Positions 28,593-36,297 of a stretch of DNA of 64,000 bases are shown here, in pieces (positions within the stretch are counted from its first letter, which is position 1; each line of letters opens with the position of its first letter). The stretch comes from Armatimonadota bacterium. Lineage in GTDB: Bacteria > Armatimonadota > HRBIN16. Position numbers and translations under genes: made by a program. Location: positions 3,552,001 through 3,616,000 of the forward strand of contig OY781964.1 in assembly GCA_963677485.1 (NCBI GenBank). The letters run 5' to 3'. Under the pieces are notes generated by a model. It had not been told where the DNA came from and ran no database searches. It saw nothing but the letters and a program-made list of their open reading frames with translations.

Positions 28593-29573
28593 TTATTTTT
28601 TGACGGGTTTCTTAGCGGGTTTGACAGCCTTCTTCGCAGGGGCTTTTGCTTTGGCAGGGGCCTTTGCAGGAGCGGCCTTCACAACGGGCTTTGCAGCGGG
28701 CTTTGCGGCTTCCATTTCGGTAGCTGTGACGATGCCGCTAAAGGCCATCGAGAGCTTGGCATTGGTGTCTTCACCACGAAGATCACCGGTGACAGTGATG
28801 TCCGTGTTTAGGTCTAAACTGGAATCAATCGTCATACCAGTGGCCAAGTCGACATTACTTGTGCTGTTGCCAGTGATGGTACCTGTCAGGTCCAGGCCTG
28901 CGGGCATGTTGGCGGGAACCAGACCAGATAGGCTGCGGATATCGATGTTGAACTTAGATGCGATGCGTGCGATCTTCTTACCGCCCATCTCATCTACCGA
29001 TTCAAGCTTGTTGGTGGCGACGATCTTGCTGCTGGTGGTGTTGGGTACATTGATGGCGGCTTCCCAACTGTCGCCTACCTTAACGGCCTGTTCAGGATAA
29101 GCCGACACGCCACTCTGGCCCATCAGGCTGTTCATAAATCCCTGGACGTTACCGTTCGGCATCAATCGAGTGATACTTTCCATGCCGGAGGCTTGGATGG
29201 GTACACCGAGCTTGTTCACCTTGAGCAGCATCGAGATATTCTGTGCAGGCGGTGTGCTGACGGGAGATCCGTTGGCAGTGATCTGCAAGCCTTCAAAAAT
29301 CAGTTTAATCTGTGTATTACCGTCAGCATCTACGCTTGCTATGTTCTGCCGCATTGACATTGACATCTGCATATTGAAGGGCATCGGTTGAGTGCTTTGA
29401 GCCGTTAAGATGGTGCCTTGCCCATCTATCACAGACCGAACTTTATAGGTAACTCCTACCTTAGGCGTCATACGCAGTAGGTAGCCTTCTGTGGCATCCT
29501 GGGCACATACAGGGGCTGCTAACATCGCACCTGCGACGGCCAGCATCAATACCCGTGATACGGAAAGTTTCAT
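28593..29573 (-). CDS. secreted DUF6263-like protein with Lys/Pro/Ala-rich tail (paralog 1)
   Basis: Signal peptide, GAGG RBS. YPEQAVKVGDSW, DLATGM. AKPAAKPVVKAAPAKAPAK tail. Confidence 0.7.
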   Translation of the reverse strand: MKLSVSRVLMLAVAGAMLAAPVCAQDATEGYLLRMTPKVGVTYKVRSVIDGQGTILTAQSTQPMPFNMQMSMSMRQNIASVDADGNTQIKLIFEGLQITANGSPVSTPPAQNISMLLKVNKLGVPIQASGMESITRLMPNGNVQGFMNSLMGQSGVSAYPEQAVKVGDSWEAAINVPNTTSSKIVATNKLESVDEMGGKKIARIASKFNIDIRSLSGLVPANMPAGLDLTGTITGNSTSNVDLATGMTIDSSLDLNTDITVTGDLRGEDTNAKLSMAFSGIVTATEMEAAKPAAKPVVKAAPAKAPAKAKAPAKKAVKPAKKPVKK

Positions 29574-29717
29574 GAGGAAGCACCTCTCAATGTGTAGTTT
29601 CGCTTAATTGTACCCCAGTTTACTGTTAAGGTGGTGAACATGGTAACGAAAATGGAAAATGATGAAGTAGAGGCTAGAAAAATCACATAAAACCGCCATT
29701 TCGCATGATGCATCAAC

Positions 29718-29845
29718 AAAAAAGGACCCGGGTGTAAACACCCGGGTCGTACCCAGCGGAGTTCACCGTGGGTCGCGTAGTCATCCGCTTTCGCGGAGCT
29801 ACAACCTGTTTCTGTATCATCCACTTGTAAGTGACATTACAGACT
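29718..29845 (-). ncRNA. candidate structured RNA (riboswitch-like leader or sRNA), copy 1
   Basis: ~95-nt core nearly identical to 31102-31198. GAAA-tetraloop hairpin, second hairpin, terminator with T6. Promoter immediately upstream. Confidence 0.55.
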
Positions 29846-29851
29846 ATCTTT

Positions 29852-29880
29852 ATAATACCCTCCCATGCAGAATATGTCCA
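29852..29880 (-). promoter_or_regulatory. sigma70-type promoter of RNA copy 1
   Basis: TGGACA-17 nt-TATTAT on minus strand. Confidence 0.6.
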
Positions 29881-30003
29881 CAGTGTGGTGATGAATTTGA
29901 TGGAGCTCATATTATTACAGTAGAAATACTGGATATTGGCATCAACACAGAGCTCTCGCGGCAGGGTGATTTACTGTTCTCTGGCATTAATAAAAGCTTG
30001 AAA

Positions 30004-30230
30004 ATAACTTGGTTGGTTATGTCCGGGGCGGTCTGGCGGTACACTTGAAATGGCCGCTGTCTATAGACCGCGCCGGTCTTGTTCCCGACATATATCATTC
30101 GTGGCTATCCGCCAGACCGGCGCGGTCTCGAGCTTTCTGCATACGCTAGCGTACGCACAGACCGCCCCGGACTTTGCCAATTGAAGGGTACGAATCCGTT
30201 ACACTATGGGCTGCCGTGCCATCACGGGCA
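30004..30230 (-). repeat. composite REP-doublet element (copy B, uninterrupted)
   Basis: Inverted arms GTCCGGGGCGGTCTG..AGACCGCGCCGGTCT (30021-30079 and 30114-30172). Also GGGCTGCCGTGCCATCACGGGCA module, seen in reverse at ~26960, ~27164 and ~27391. Confidence 0.8.
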
Positions 30231-30280
30231 GTTTCTTGTAATGGTAGATCCATGCAACGGAGCAGATGCGGTGGTTCTAC

Positions 30281-31075
30281 CTATCCAGTCAAGCCGGAGA
30301 TCAGCCGATACAGTTCAATCCGGTCAGGGTCGATCAGTTCCAGACCATATGCATCCTTGAAGGCCTGATCATACCGATCGGTGTGCAGGTTGTAGTTGAG
30401 TGTCCAGATGCCCCAGAACAGGTCGTAGTGCCTGTCGCCAACACCGCCATACCCCACATCGATGAATGCGTTGAACTGCCAGTTATGAATGATGATATTG
30501 GGCAGGCAGTAGTCGCCATGAATCACCACATTATCGCTGTGGTTGTGAAACAGGTGGTGGCAGGATTCGACCGCGTCATCAGCGGGCATCTGCAGTATCT
30601 GCTGGTCGCCTGATGGGAATGGCTGCGGTGCGTCAGGAGCATATAGGCAGTCAATATCCTGCATCATCTGTGCTGTGCGGTTGGGGAATGGGCAGCCGGT
30701 TGTTGGAAGCTCATGAAGGAGTCGAAGCTGATGGCCGAATAACACCGCTAGCCGCTCAGGGTGTGCGAGGTGATCGGGGTGGATGCCGTCTTCGCCATCT
30801 GCCGCTTGAGTTAAAAGATAGTCATACCCATTCTCAGTTTCGAAGCTCAGCATTTCAGGTGCCATCTGGTGGCTGTGCAGAAACTGCATCATGGCAGCCT
30901 CCGGTTGTAGCGTTTCGGCAGGTGCCTGTTTGAGATAGCATGGTATATTTCCATCCGCGAACCAAACCCGGGCATCAGTGCTGCAATGGCTGTCATACCA
31001 CACTGCATCTTTCACGATGCCGCGAATCGTGTGTGGTAGATCAGGCAGCGGCCTGGTGATGAGTGTGCGTTGCAT
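30281..31075 (-). CDS. aminoglycoside 3'-phosphotransferase (APH) family protein
   Basis: Brenner motif IHGDYCLPNII, IDVGYGGVGDRHYDL. ATG 31075 preceded by GGAGG. Confidence 0.85.
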   Translation of the reverse strand: MQRTLITRPLPDLPHTIRGIVKDAVWYDSHCSTDARVWFADGNIPCYLKQAPAETLQPEAAMMQFLHSHQMAPEMLSFETENGYDYLLTQAADGEDGIHPDHLAHPERLAVLFGHQLRLLHELPTTGCPFPNRTAQMMQDIDCLYAPDAPQPFPSGDQQILQMPADDAVESCHHLFHNHSDNVVIHGDYCLPNIIIHNWQFNAFIDVGYGGVGDRHYDLFWGIWTLNYNLHTDRYDQAFKDAYGLELIDPDRIELYRLISGLTG

Positions 31076-31092
31076 AGATGACTGCCTCCAGA

Positions 31093-31225
31093 ACAAGAAA
31101 TGACCCGGGTAAAAAATCTACCCGGGTCGAACCCAGCGGTGTTTACCGTGGGTCGCGTAGTCATCCACTTTCGTGGAGCTACAACCTGTTTCTGTATCTA
31201 CCACCAAAGGCTATAGACCAGACTG
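31093..31225 (-). ncRNA. candidate structured RNA, copy 2, in the 5' leader of the APH gene
   Basis: Same core as copy 1 with compensatory CCAC-GAAA-GTGG. Terminator-like hairpin ends ~12 nt before the APH RBS. Confidence 0.55.
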
Positions 31226-31230
31226 TTTTA

Positions 31231-31260
31231 AATATACCCTCTACCGTAAAGAGAATGCAA
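31231..31260 (-). promoter_or_regulatory. sigma70-type promoter of RNA copy 2 / APH
   Basis: TTGCAT-18 nt-TATATT on minus strand, at the same offset from the RNA core as in copy 1. Confidence 0.5.
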
Positions 31261-31399
31261 TCCGAATCTACAGCAGATGTTAAAACTAGCAAAAATACGG
31301 ATATGCTCGCCGTATAGTAGGGGATACCCAGTCGCAGTATACTAATCTGAGGGGAACTATCCTTCAAATCGCCAGTTCAGAATGTGTGAGGTCGATTCG

Positions 31400-32734
31400 A
31401 TGAAAATGCTCATTTTAATGATGTTTGTGGTCGGTATGGCCGTGTTCCAAGCCAGGCCCGTATACGCTGCCAACCCGATACTGCGAGGCTTGGGAGTGTG
31501 TGACCCGCATATCCGCATCTACAACAATCGAGCATGGTTATACGCTACCCATGACGCCTCGGTCAACAACACGGGCTTCACAATGCATGACTGGTGGGTG
31601 TGGTCCTCAACTGACCTTGTGAACTGGACACATGAGAGCACACTACGGCCGGAGGATACTTACCACAAGGCTCCATCGACGACCTGCTGGGCTACCGACA
31701 GTTTGAAATCTCACGGCAAATACTACTTCTATTTCTCAATGGGTGTCACTGATGTGGGTGTGGTCGTTGGCGATACACCCAAAGGGCCATGGCGTGACCC
31801 ATTGGGCAAGCCGCTTCTACCATCCACATTGACGCCAACCGAAGAGCGTGATCCAGGCATCATCATGGATGATGATGGGAACGTCTACATCGTGTTTGGG
31901 GTGTGGGACTTCTATATTGCACGATTGAACAAGGATATGATCTCATTGGCGGAGGCACCCCGGAAGATCGAACTCGATCAAAAAGATGGTCCATATGGTC
32001 CCGGCAAGACAGACGACAAGCCGTATCTTCACAAATACAAAGGCAATTACTATCTTTCCTGGGGATGCTTCTACGCGATGTCCGATAGCGTCTACGGTCC
32101 ATATACTTATAAAGGCTCCGTGATCGTGGAAAGCCGCACCTCACCCGAGTTTCAAAAGGGGCTGACAATGGACCGTCACGGCTGCTTCTTCGAGCTCTAC
32201 AACCAATGGTATTTCATGTGCAATGATCAGAGCTGGCCTGGCAGCCACGGAGTGTTTCGAAACTCGGTGATCTGCTATGTTCACTACCGTGACAACGGTG
32301 AGATTGAACCCGTCACGCTGGACTCTGTAGGAGTGGGAGAATATGATGCGGCCAATGGGCGCATCGAGGCGGAGAACTACTTCAAGGCGGTGAACACCAC
32401 CAAGCGACAGTCACCTGAGGGCGGATTTGAGATCAAGGGCATTCGGGAGAACAGCCGTCTGGTGTATCCCCGTGTGAGGAATATACCCGCCAACTGCTCG
32501 ATGAAGTTCCACGTGGCCTCAGCAGCTCTGCAGGGGGGCGTCATAGAGGTGCGTGCAAGCGGTTTCCGGGGCAAGTTGCTGGGCCGATGTCAGGTGCCGT
32601 ATACCGGAGGATGGACCAGTTACAAGACCGTCGAGTGCAAGCTTAAAAACACGGCAGAGAAAATGGACATTGCCCTGGTATTTAAAGGTCAAGGGGCTGA
32701 GCTGATGAGGCTTGACTGGATGAGCTTCGACTAG
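31400..32734 (+). CDS. secreted GH43 glycoside hydrolase (xylosidase/arabinosidase-like) with C-terminal CBM6
   Basis: NPI...CDPHIRIYNNRAWLYATHD, SSTDLVNWT, WATD, PKGPWRDPLGKPL, DPGIIMDDDG. RIEAENY...TGGWTSY...RLDWMSF. Confidence 0.88.
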   Translation: MKMLILMMFVVGMAVFQARPVYAANPILRGLGVCDPHIRIYNNRAWLYATHDASVNNTGFTMHDWWVWSSTDLVNWTHESTLRPEDTYHKAPSTTCWATDSLKSHGKYYFYFSMGVTDVGVVVGDTPKGPWRDPLGKPLLPSTLTPTEERDPGIIMDDDGNVYIVFGVWDFYIARLNKDMISLAEAPRKIELDQKDGPYGPGKTDDKPYLHKYKGNYYLSWGCFYAMSDSVYGPYTYKGSVIVESRTSPEFQKGLTMDRHGCFFELYNQWYFMCNDQSWPGSHGVFRNSVICYVHYRDNGEIEPVTLDSVGVGEYDAANGRIEAENYFKAVNTTKRQSPEGGFEIKGIRENSRLVYPRVRNIPANCSMKFHVASAALQGGVIEVRASGFRGKLLGRCQVPYTGGWTSYKTVECKLKNTAEKMDIALVFKGQGAELMRLDWMSFD

Positions 32735-32796: not shown

Positions 32797-33741
32797 CTAC
32801 GTGGCCCAGTTGACCCCAGTCAAATTCACATTTTCCAGGTTGACACCGCGCAGGTTGGCACGGTGTAGATGCGCCTTATTCAAGTTGGCTCCGTCCAAGT
32901 TGGCTCCTACGAGACTAATACCGGCCAGCTTGGCGTTGCTAAGGTCCACATTGGACAGGTTTGCTTTAGAAAAATCTGCACAGTGAAGATTGGCGTAGTG
33001 CAGTATCGCATGGCTCAGATCTGCACCTTCCATACAAACGCCGCTCAGGTTGGCGCAATGTAGAACGGCATCACGAAGATTCGCACCGTGTAAGTCGGCA
33101 TCACTCAGATTCGTGTGCTCCATTTTAGCGCGTTCAAGTGTGCAGCCGCTTAGGGTGGTGCCATGCATATCAGATTGAGACAGATTGGCATCCTCGAAGT
33201 TGGCGCTCACCAAGTTCGCGCTGGTGAGGTTTGAGTCTTCCAGTTTCGCGTTGCTCAGGTTCGCACCTTGTAGATTAGCACCGGTCAGATTAGCAAAGTT
33301 GAGCCACGCACCGCACAGTTGGGCATCACGTAAATCAGCACCACTCAGATCAGCTCCAACCAGATTCGCCTCGGTCAAGTCAGCACCCTTGAGGCAGGCG
33401 TTGATCATCCGCGTATTACTTAAATTGGCTTTGCGAAGGTTGGCGTTAGAGATATTAGCTTCCGACAGGTCCGCCCTGATTAACTTAGTGCTCTCTAAAT
33501 TGGCTTTAGTGAGATTGGCACCACGTAAATCGGCACCCCACATCTGAGCCGATTCCAAGTTGGCATTTGCCAGCATCGCGCCTTTTAGATTGGCATCGGG
33601 CAGGTCGGCATGGGCTAAAACCACACCCTTCAGGTTAGCGGTATGTAGTTCGTTTTTGCTAGTCTGTATTGCGGTCAGGATATCCTGGTAATCACCGGTC
33701 ACGATGACTGCATTGTTCGTGTCCTTAATTTCTATCTGCAT
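32797..33741 (-). CDS. pentapeptide repeat protein
   Basis: About 55 A(N/D)Lxx repeats after a short N-terminal segment. Confidence 0.93.
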   Translation of the reverse strand: MQIEIKDTNNAVIVTGDYQDILTAIQTSKNELHTANLKGVVLAHADLPDANLKGAMLANANLESAQMWGADLRGANLTKANLESTKLIRADLSEANISNANLRKANLSNTRMINACLKGADLTEANLVGADLSGADLRDAQLCGAWLNFANLTGANLQGANLSNAKLEDSNLTSANLVSANFEDANLSQSDMHGTTLSGCTLERAKMEHTNLSDADLHGANLRDAVLHCANLSGVCMEGADLSHAILHYANLHCADFSKANLSNVDLSNAKLAGISLVGANLDGANLNKAHLHRANLRGVNLENVNLTGVNWAT

Positions 33742-33996
33742 CTATCTTCATTCTGCCTTGTGTGTGTTCCGCTCATGCTGTGGTTCGAGACTTCACAAAC
33801 TCTACCGCAGACGCATGATCCGTTGCCTGCATGTGCCGAATAAAACATTATACCCTAATACATATAGTTTACACCATAAGTCCGAAAATGACAAGCTGAC
33901 GCCTGCTGAGGGGGTACGGTTGCTTGTCAGCTTAGGACACACGAATAGCTATGGCCTACTTCTTGGGTTCCGGGAGGAACCGAATCCGCCGGAATA

Positions 33997-34035
33997 GTCT
34001 GAACCACGGATTACGCGGATGACACAGATGGAGCG
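33997..34035 (+). repeat. ACGGAT micro-repeat module (solo arm)
   Basis: GTCTGAACCACGGATTACGCGGATGACACAGATGG matches the arms at 61885 and 62035-62095. Confidence 0.7.
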
Positions 34036-34269
34036 GGATGATGGCGGACGCATTTCAGGCTGCTTCAACAGTCTTGTCAGTTAGTAATCGGGGACGCCCC
34101 GATAGTTCAGTTACAGCCTGGGCTGCCGTGCAAGCACGGGCCGATGCTTGGTGTTCAATAGCCGAGACATTTATGTCGCGGAACCGGTGACCTACTGGCC
34201 ATGCGATATTTGCGGGTAATAGACTGACATTGATGTCGCGGCATGGGTGATGGCCATAATTCCCATACC

Positions 34270-34304
34270 AAAAAAAGCCCCGGGTGGAAAAATCCACCCG
34301 GGGC
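34270..34304 (-). terminator. intrinsic terminator of groESL
   Basis: Minus strand gccccgggtgg-atttt-tccacccggggc followed by T7. Confidence 0.9.
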
Positions 34305-34354
34305 GAAACCTGCGGGGTTAGCCGCCGGTCTGATAACCCTCTGCTGGTGCAGAG

Positions 34355-36297
<1,943 letters not shown>

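Follow-up and report, generated by a model that had tools for sequence, protein, structure and literature searches.

What are the two structured RNA elements that stand on either side of an APH(3')-like phosphotransferase gene in the DNA analysed here? The stretch (64 kb, hereafter the window) belongs to a 5.22-Mb genome of the phylum Armatimonadota (G000), which was compared with two further genomes of the same genus (G001 and G002). Both copies of the element, and the groEL relative described below, are on the minus strand. A preliminary description of the locus had proposed a new riboswitch or attenuator, or a multi-copy small RNA (sRNA). By sequence comparison, the element is a descendant of a duplicated groEL 3' end, and it is under selection. 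The reading preferred here, a young short RNA with its own terminator that also serves as the leader of the APH gene, is advanced tentatively, as a good possibility that falls a little short of probable.

Copy 1 was located at about 29715-29880 and copy 2 at about 31091-31262; each measures approximately 135-165 nt, and the two can be aligned over about 165 nt. Each copy, read from 5' to 3', opens with hairpin P1 and a conserved linker rich in A and C; hairpin A, which has a GAAA loop, and hairpin B follow, and a G+C-rich terminator hairpin (T) closes the element. The predicted folds of copy 1 (-56.3 kcal/mol, z -5.3) and copy 2 (-61.1 kcal/mol, z -6.2) were compared with 200 shuffles each, none of which folded equally well.

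In copy 1, hairpin P1 (29812-29844; outer helix GUCUGU/AUACAG, inner helix UCACU/AGUGG) was present in both the minimum-energy and the centroid fold. The 22-mer GATACAGAAACAGGTTGTAGCT (29797-29818), the middle of which (AAACAGGUU) is a predicted single-stranded linker, is identical in both G000 copies and carries one G>A change in G001. Hairpin A (29776-29803; GAAA tetraloop with a GUAG/CUAC extension) was supported by fold and alignment, and hairpin B (ACCCACGG/CCGCUGGGU, 29751-29773) is worth -11.8 kcal/mol alone. The intrinsic terminator (GACCCGGGTG TTTA CACCCGGGTC, with the tail CTTTTTTGTT; 29715-29748) was scored by the scan at 10 pairs, 8 of them G-C, and -20.0 kcal/mol; its stem ends at 29725, about 150 nt 5' of the start of a DUF6263 gene (29573). 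Copy 2 has the same parts: a P1 hairpin with a longer helix of other sequence (31191-31222, by fold), the 22-mer as an exact match to copy 1 (31177-31198), and hairpins A (31156-31183) and B (31131-31153), which occupy 31131-31183 and were assigned from fold, alignment and energy. Its terminator-like hairpin (31102-31128; 12 pairs in the scan, -19.7 kcal/mol) is followed by the interrupted U tract ATTTCTTGTT (hairpin and tract, 31091-31128), directly 3' of which the sequence contains the APH ribosome-binding site GGAGG (31085-31089). The stem ends at 31102, 26 nt 5' of the APH ATG (31075-31073).

These results bear out most of the anatomy in the preliminary description: two structured minus-strand copies around the APH gene, a first hairpin of variable sequence with UCUG/CAGA closure (predicted in the fold), an invariant stretch (the 22-mer), a hairpin A with GAAA loop, GUAG/CUAC extension and a compensatory G-C/A-U exchange, hairpin B and the terminator as named, a copy 2 ending in a weak U tract just before the APH ribosome-binding site, and a strong U tract in copy 1 before the DUF6263 gene.

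The element matches no known RNA family and is not a dispersed repeat. A search of the whole window against Rfam 15 (4227 families) gave no match at the gathering score; the best sub-threshold match, in E-value mode, was anti-hemB (26.5 bits, threshold 49.5), aligned mainly to the terminator. Allowing up to 3 mismatches, the 22-mer occurs at exactly two sites in the window, those given above (0.00 in 100 shuffles). A BLAST search of the 5.22-Mb genome with copy 1 returned itself and copy 2 only (87%, 110 nt); the remaining 10 of the 12 matches were pieces of 15-24 nt with E of at least 0.017, one of them the palindromic terminator stem of copy 1 against its own opposite strand. The many dispersed copies that mark REP, REPIN or MITE sequences were not found in the 5.22 Mb, which contained two BLAST copies and three covariance-model places. 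Like REP/REPIN repeats, the element is hairpin-rich intergenic DNA, and such repeats adjoin copy 1 and the groEL UTR described below; unlike them, it has two copies and one distant relative instead of hundreds, all on the strand of the neighbouring genes and all ending in terminators.

The distant relative was found with a covariance model (R1) built from the three APH-type copies only (two from G000, one from G001; 105 positions, 29 pairs) and containing no groEL sequence. A covariance-model search of related genomes, of the kind suggested in the preliminary description, thus brought out a third, diverged member behind the groEL stop codon. R1 matched the groEL 3' untranslated region (UTR) at 53.6 bits in G000 (window 34270-34378; E 2.3e-12 for the genome), 53.1 bits in G001 and 41.6 bits in G002; in the 18 genomes of the family, apart from the known copies and the groEL UTRs, it gave no match better than E 0.04. 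The groEL stop codon and 3' UTR (34264-34357), parent or paralog of the element, contain counterparts of hairpin A, hairpin B and T in the element's own order: hairpin A' (CUCUGC/GCAGAG, 34339-34354), hairpin B' (ACCGGCGG/CCGCAGGU, 34308-34329), to which hairpin B is homologous, and a terminator GCCCCGGGUGG/CCACCCGGGGC (GCCCCGGGTGG..CCACCCGGGGC, 34277-34304) with a U tract. This UTR has a predicted fold of -50.3 kcal/mol (z -6.3). The hairpin form CCCGGGT..ACCCGGG was found at exactly three places in the 5.22 Mb: copy 1, copy 2 and the groEL UTR. By pairwise BLAST, copy 2 and the groEL UTR are 76.5% identical over 68 nt (E 6e-9), and 51 of the 110 columns are invariant in an alignment of six sequences (three APH-type copies and three groEL UTRs). 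The 22-mer aligns with the final groEL codons and stop (GGATACGATATGTAA); the position of the stop codon is the 5' strand of the hairpin A extension in groEL and in the copies, and the groEL stop TAA has become TAG in the copies, with UUAU changed to CUAC on the partner strand.

An intermediate form is present in G002, where the 71 nt directly 5' of the APH ortholog are 88.7% identical to the coding tail of its own groEL (E 1.6e-22); 3' of them come a UTR that has diverged and, adjoining the ribosome-binding site, a G+C hairpin of 12 bp. A duplicated groEL end thus lies directly 5' of APH in all three genomes, 2-3 kb downstream of the real groEL. Because R1 matches behind the groEL stop codon, and because G002 has a copy of the groEL tail before APH, the element is, on sequence homology, the descendant of a duplicated groEL 3' end comprising the last codons, two 3'-UTR hairpins and the terminator. 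This origin explains the hairpins of the element. In sister genera, 28 groEL ends were collected; for roughly half of these loci the antisense frame had been picked, and they were not counted. In the correctly framed loci the gene ends in a simple terminator, and hairpins A and B are absent. Two features, a 4-nt deletion in a loop and an A in the linker, are common to copy 1 and the G001 leader but occur neither in copy 2 nor in the groEL UTRs, so copy 1 is not a fresh duplicate of copy 2.

The APH-type copies and the groEL UTR of the same genus therefore have hairpin A, hairpin B and a CCCGGGT-type terminator in common. The copies differ in being detached from groEL and in having a new P1, a promoter-like -10 box, a GAAA loop and additional bases in a conserved 22-nt stretch; the UTR is also less conserved relative to its surroundings than the copies are (UTR 86%, groEL itself 98% nucleotide identity).

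Conservation was assessed over a core of 109 columns, in which identity was 93/105 for copy 1 and copy 2, 95/102 for copy 1 and G001, and 86/102 for copy 2 and G001, i.e. 84-93% overall. Between G000 and G001, four-fold sites are identical at 46% in APH (93 sites), 51% in GH43 (174 sites) and 40% in DUF6263 (149 sites). Flanking intergenic DNA can hardly be aligned; the APH-DUF6263 spacer aligns between G000 and G001 only in its last ~100 nt. As the copies are 84-93% identical, against 40-51% at the flanking four-fold sites, the element is under selection and is not a neutral remnant.

The changes that did occur respect the stems. Among the 23 variable core columns, 17 are unpaired and the other 6 form three fully compensated pairs; the 58 stem columns of the 109 contain no uncompensated change. 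Pair 29-36 of hairpin A, G-C in copy 1 and in G001 but A-U in copy 2, is genuinely compensated, and two more pairs of this hairpin are exchanged on both sides in comparison with the groEL UTRs. When the three groEL UTRs were added, 91.6% of cells could pair and 5 of 30 pairs had changed on both sides, against a pairing fraction of 38-49% in slid alignments used as control. The covariation sample consists of three mutually related APH-type sequences from two genomes, and these figures express consistency, not a proper test of significance.

Because the high conservation spans loops and linkers as well as stems, it suggests that the RNA itself is the selected product, which could be a base-pairing or a protein-binding sRNA. 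Whether attached to APH (G001) or not (copy 1), the sequence remains of one type, with 93% identity. The sequence of P1 differs between copies and the hairpin is retained in each; its rebuilding in copy 2 from other sequence, as predicted by folding, is an argument for transcription of the DNA upstream of the 22-mer.

The distribution of the element is narrow. BLAST searches of 41 related genomes found it in G000 (two copies) and G001 (one copy) only; the G001 copy lies directly before the APH ortholog, adjoining a divergent GH43 gene, and the G001 APH-DUF6263 interval contains no copy. R1 was run over 18 genomes of the family and 151 of the phylum, and real matches were obtained in G000, G001 and G002 only; the APH-type element is present in 2 of the 151 phylum genomes and was not found in the other 149. 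R1 also gave weak matches in G004 and G014 and in 10 further genomes of the phylum (E 3e-5 to 0.09); these were rejected as ordinary terminators behind unrelated open reading frames (ORFs), none of them after groEL. Pattern scans with ACAGAAACAGNTTGTAGC gave 188 matches (111 loci in metagenome contigs, 77 in species-genome contigs), of which 10 passed a loose filter; one of these was real (L184), with the same sequence as the G001 copy. The family is thus very small and confined to one genus: a very narrow new RNA family, representing a kind of element already known.

The position of copy 2 bears on what the element does. The APH gene (30281-31075, minus strand) encodes a 264-aa protein (Pfam APH, 96 bits) that matches the NCBIfam APH(3') family at 146 bits, below the cut-off of 205. 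Among the 18 family genomes, orthologs were found in the three genomes of the genus only, and in none of the 15 genomes of sister genera. Copy 2 lies between this gene and a divergent GH43/CBM6 gene (31382-32734, plus strand) in a spacer of 306 nt, and reaches to 16 nt before the APH ATG, with GGAGG within those 16 nt; G001 has the same GH43-element-APH layout. Since GH43 is divergent and the spacer has no visible room for another APH promoter, copy 2 must be the 5' leader of APH if the gene is expressed from this spacer, and the element is the only possible leader. Copy 1 is placed differently: it sits beyond the APH stop codon, a REP-like repeat of ~250 nt and ~135 nt of unique DNA, and is followed by a pair of DUF6263 genes. 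G001, where no element stands, has the ~100 nt before DUF6263 in conserved form, so DUF6263 does not depend on copy 1.

The sequence data demonstrate how the element is built, that its stems carry compensated changes, that it is homologous to the groEL 3' end, that it is narrowly distributed and that it is conserved far above the neutral level. A transcription start, a division between termination and read-through, and any action in trans are inferred, as follows. A duplicated groEL 3' end would have been placed directly before the APH(3')-like gene and would have become a short RNA unit of ~130 nt, transcribed from a sigma-70-like promoter that the decayed coding tail of groEL gave rise to; P1 would protect the 5' end, and T would be where most transcripts stop. 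Before APH, this transcript would also be the sole possible 5' leader, and APH would be expressed by the fraction of polymerases reading through T, the U tract of which is interrupted in copy 2: a terminator-type attenuator, the terminated product of which would be a small RNA. Copy 1 would be a second, free-standing copy; its promoter match is the best of the three, and its U tract has no interruption.

The ends of this putative unit are unequally supported. All three terminators passed the scan for intrinsic terminators (copy 1, 10 pairs and CTTTTTTGTT; copy 2, 12 pairs and ATTTCTTGTT; G001, 10 pairs and CTTTAGATTC), and the U tract is uninterrupted in copy 1 only. For the 5' end, a consensus scan of 29400-31500 passed a single site, TGGACA-17 nt-TATTAT of copy 1 (29852-29880, minus strand), a putative promoter that matches the consensus at 10 of 12 positions. 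The copy 2 site is weaker (TTGCAT-18 nt-TATATT, 31231-31260, minus strand), and its -10 region, GGGTAT.., can be aligned in all three APH-type copies. Of the sigma-70 promoters previously assigned to both copies, that of copy 1 is thus upheld as a consensus match; in copy 2 the candidate fails the scan.

Several observations weigh against this reading. Only one of the three promoter candidates passes the scan, those of copy 2 and G001 (TTGATT-18-TAATAT) matching at 8/12 by hand count. The terminator of copy 1 is the first terminator-like site after the APH stop codon on the same strand, and could be the 3' end of the APH transcript, as in the groEL parent. The form in G002 lacks a U tract and is not significantly similar by BLAST to the copies of G000 and G001, so the element in its described form either postdates the genus or had a separate origin. 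Three related APH-type sequences from two genomes give thin covariation statistics, and the search for targets, described below, found none that is conserved. Contigs of four sequencing runs were aligned: those of X4, which is DNA-like and from the same strain, show 0 differences from the window in the pieces listed, and those of three metatranscriptome runs (from relatives ~90% identical) cover groEL and the DUF6263 genes, with little or nothing over the copies, which is evidence in neither direction. On balance, an sRNA or a terminator-type leader stays the best reading; of the earlier proposal of a multi-copy sRNA, it is 'multi-copy' that overstates the two copies found.

The alternative that survives best, although it is unlikely, is that the groEL end was kept passively: as a terminator or insulator with mRNA-end hairpins, copy 1 being the 3' end of the APH transcript and copy 2 a stable 5'-UTR block, with neither sRNA nor regulation. 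The parent is a plain 3' UTR with a terminator, and the position of the copy 1 terminator after APH, the failure of two of the three promoter candidates and the lack of a usable transcript signal over the copies in the metatranscriptome contigs all fit this account. A terminator, however, constrains pairing and not sequence, yet loops, linkers and the 22-mer are kept at 84-93% against the neutral 40-51%. P1 lies upstream of everything that a terminator needs, yet it was remade as a hairpin from other sequence in copy 2. Moreover, the gene upstream of copy 2 and of the G001 copy is divergent, leaving no co-directional gene to terminate.

A more ambitious version of the short-RNA reading is improbable as it stands: a newborn regulatory RNA, in which the promoter gained by the duplicated groEL 3' end would make the element both a terminator-controlled APH leader and a trans-acting sRNA of the Hfq type, with the linker pairing within the coding sequence of APH. 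A gene for Hfq is present in the genome (82 bits); CsrA was not found. A conserved 28-nt stretch of the element is complementary to a site within the APH coding region (30406-30432, minus strand; codons HYDLFWGI), which is offered as a lead only: in G000 the predicted duplex has -30.0 kcal/mol, a value equalled by 5 of 2500 random 795-nt windows of the genome (0.002). The corresponding APH duplex of G001, at -20.5 kcal/mol, does not stand out from the background (fraction 0.22). The G>A change in the G001 linker is matched by C>T at both complementary APH sites; complementary strings also arise from common codon runs, e.g. YNLFL. Another site (site 1, 30547-30561; 13/15 in G000, 11 contiguous in G001) was rejected as a compensated interaction, the whole-gene statistics in G001 being unsupportive. 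Elsewhere in the genome there is one 15-nt perfect complement of the element, inside an ORF. The complement scan also encountered twelve identical copies of a stretch containing CCTGTTTCTGT in G000:C1 (e.g. at 1370847, 1662271 and 2030756). If this version were true, the resistance-like gene would be subject to a closed feedback loop of its own, which might respond to conditions altering termination at T.

It is very improbable that the element is a ribosome-dependent attenuator, in which translation or stalling on a leader ORF running over hairpin B and T (MTTRPTV..., AUG at 29782-29784 and 31162-31164) would open T. The frame is open in all three copies (21 aa in G001, 23 aa in copy 1, past the APH start in copy 2), and a 3-nt difference in the length of the terminator loop preserves it. 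The position of the stop codon, on the other hand, is not conserved, and most differences between copies are non-synonymous, the compensated stem changes giving D>G and V>A. There is no Shine-Dalgarno sequence at a usable distance (a GGA abuts the AUG, against the GGAGG that lies 9 nt upstream of the APH start), the AUG is buried in the very stable hairpin A, and Pfam searches of the sense frames gave no match at E <= 1; a translatable leader ORF with a ribosome-binding site was therefore not found.

A ligand-binding riboswitch, responding for example to aminoglycosides, is highly unlikely. Here P1 and hairpins A and B would be the aptamer, and a CUGGGU/ACCCGG antiterminator would switch T. 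The leader position before an APH(3')-like gene, a terminator adjoining the ribosome-binding site and the high conservation of unpaired nucleotides would suit such a device, and the alternative 6-bp pairing, postulated before as CTGGGT/ACCCGG, does exist in all three copies. It is weak, however: at -6.4 to -6.7 kcal/mol it has about one third of the stability of the terminator (-19.7 to -22.1 kcal/mol), far from comparable, and T stays the minimum-energy fold even with the 5' strand of hairpin B blocked. No Rfam family matches. An aptamer would be expected, with covariation, across many lineages and before genes of related function, whereas this element was born recently from a groEL 3' UTR and is confined to two genomes. 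Copy 1 has no gene to switch, given that G001 keeps the upstream region of DUF6263 without an element. The earlier suggestion of a new riboswitch class is abandoned in view of the groEL descent, the occurrence in 2 of 151 phylum genomes and the weak antiterminator.

The least credible reading, a small protein gene on the opposite (plus) strand, draws on one antisense frame that is open through the element in all three copies (stop-to-stop 125 aa at 29671-30048, 79 aa at 31078-31317 and at least 94 aa in G001, L014 1406-1690 (-), in the same frame relative to the element), and is opposed by the lack of an ATG, GTG or TTG upstream of the conserved part in copy 1 (with no plus-strand ORF of at least 50 aa listed there), of a ribosome-binding site before the copy 2 ATG and of any Pfam match at E <= 1 for the three frames, as well as by the paired compensated substitutions, which are the product of RNA stems and not of codons. 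The open antisense frame extends into unrelated flanks, and that of copy 1 holds a CRICPQCG string.

The short RNA proposed here can be compared with several known systems. Terminated leaders that act as sRNAs (SreA and SreB of Listeria) and Hfq-dependent sRNAs derived from 3' UTRs (CpxQ, DapZ and SdhX) are established. The element resembles them in being a putative short RNA with an intrinsic terminator end, a sequence shared with an mRNA end, a conserved single-stranded stretch and a U-rich 3' end, in a genome that encodes Hfq. It differs from the CpxQ type in that the 3' UTR was duplicated, apparently with its own promoter, and is not processed from the parent mRNA. Resistance genes can also be controlled by antibiotic-responsive transcription attenuators of the leader-peptide type, described in Term-seq work and in reviews. 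These have in common with copy 2 a terminator hairpin between promoter and resistance-like gene, and a short open frame over the terminator; here, by contrast, the leader frame has no usable ribosome-binding site and undergoes amino-acid-changing substitutions, and the antiterminator is weak. Finally, an aminoglycoside riboswitch, the sole published claim of its kind known to us, has reportedly been described for the leaders of class 1 integrons (PMC7588185) and is said to be disputed in another paper (PMC9410878). It too is a structured leader before a gene for an aminoglycoside-modifying-enzyme-like protein; the present element stands before APH (not AAC or ANT) and outside any integron context, a distinction drawn from descriptions.

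The surroundings of the element showed further features. Just upstream of its promoter-like site there is a small hairpin with the conserved run CCGTATTT(A/T)TGCTAGTTTT (L014 1380-1398 (+); window ~31293-31309, minus strand), rated terminator-like by the scan in G001; a possible role is to shield the element from transcription running antisense to GH43. In G001, CCUUUAGAUUCUGGAGG, which follows the terminator (L014 1600-1620 (+)), is predicted to fold on itself in a way that can cover the APH Shine-Dalgarno sequence, and the P1 loop CUUUCAGG can pair with CUGGAGG in the minimum-energy fold, a pairing absent from the centroid structure.

Two REP-like repeats were mapped, both outside the element. 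The first, a multi-copy palindromic repeat between APH and copy 1 (29995-30250), has up to 293 genome BLAST hits per 20-nt bin; the second (33975-34250), directly downstream of the groEL terminator, has up to 180. They share one 44-nt match (79.5% identity). The X4 contigs break at both repeats, and word depth jumps to 7540 at 29995-30250.

The groEL gene itself (34355-35983) has four-fold sites that are 92% identical between G000 and G001, against 40-51% in neighbouring genes; a groEL region that was exchanged recently, or a strong bias in codon use, could account for this. One groEL match was found in each of G000, G001 and G002, and two in 11 of the 15 other family genomes (~79% and ~71% identical to the query). 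Between groEL and GH43, G000 has a gene for a pentapeptide-repeat protein of 314 aa (32797-33741, minus strand; Pfam Pentapeptide, 323 bits), and the groEL-APH interval of G002 has different small ORFs; because of this difference, the interval looks like an insertion hot spot.

In the literature, small RNAs of Armatimonadota were met as incidental mentions only, and no close precedent was met among the listed reports on sRNA origins; we make no claim that an origin from a groEL end is unpublished. The practical reach of the finding is small (two genomes of one uncultured genus). For the annotation of structured leaders in general, a search for paralogs at the 3' ends of genes is a cheap control before a riboswitch is called. 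If the element is transcribed as proposed, it would be a clear natural example, from a barely studied phylum, of the birth of a bacterial small RNA or leader, in which a duplicated gene end supplies ready-made hairpins and a terminator, and the decayed coding tail gives the promoter and the 5' hairpin.

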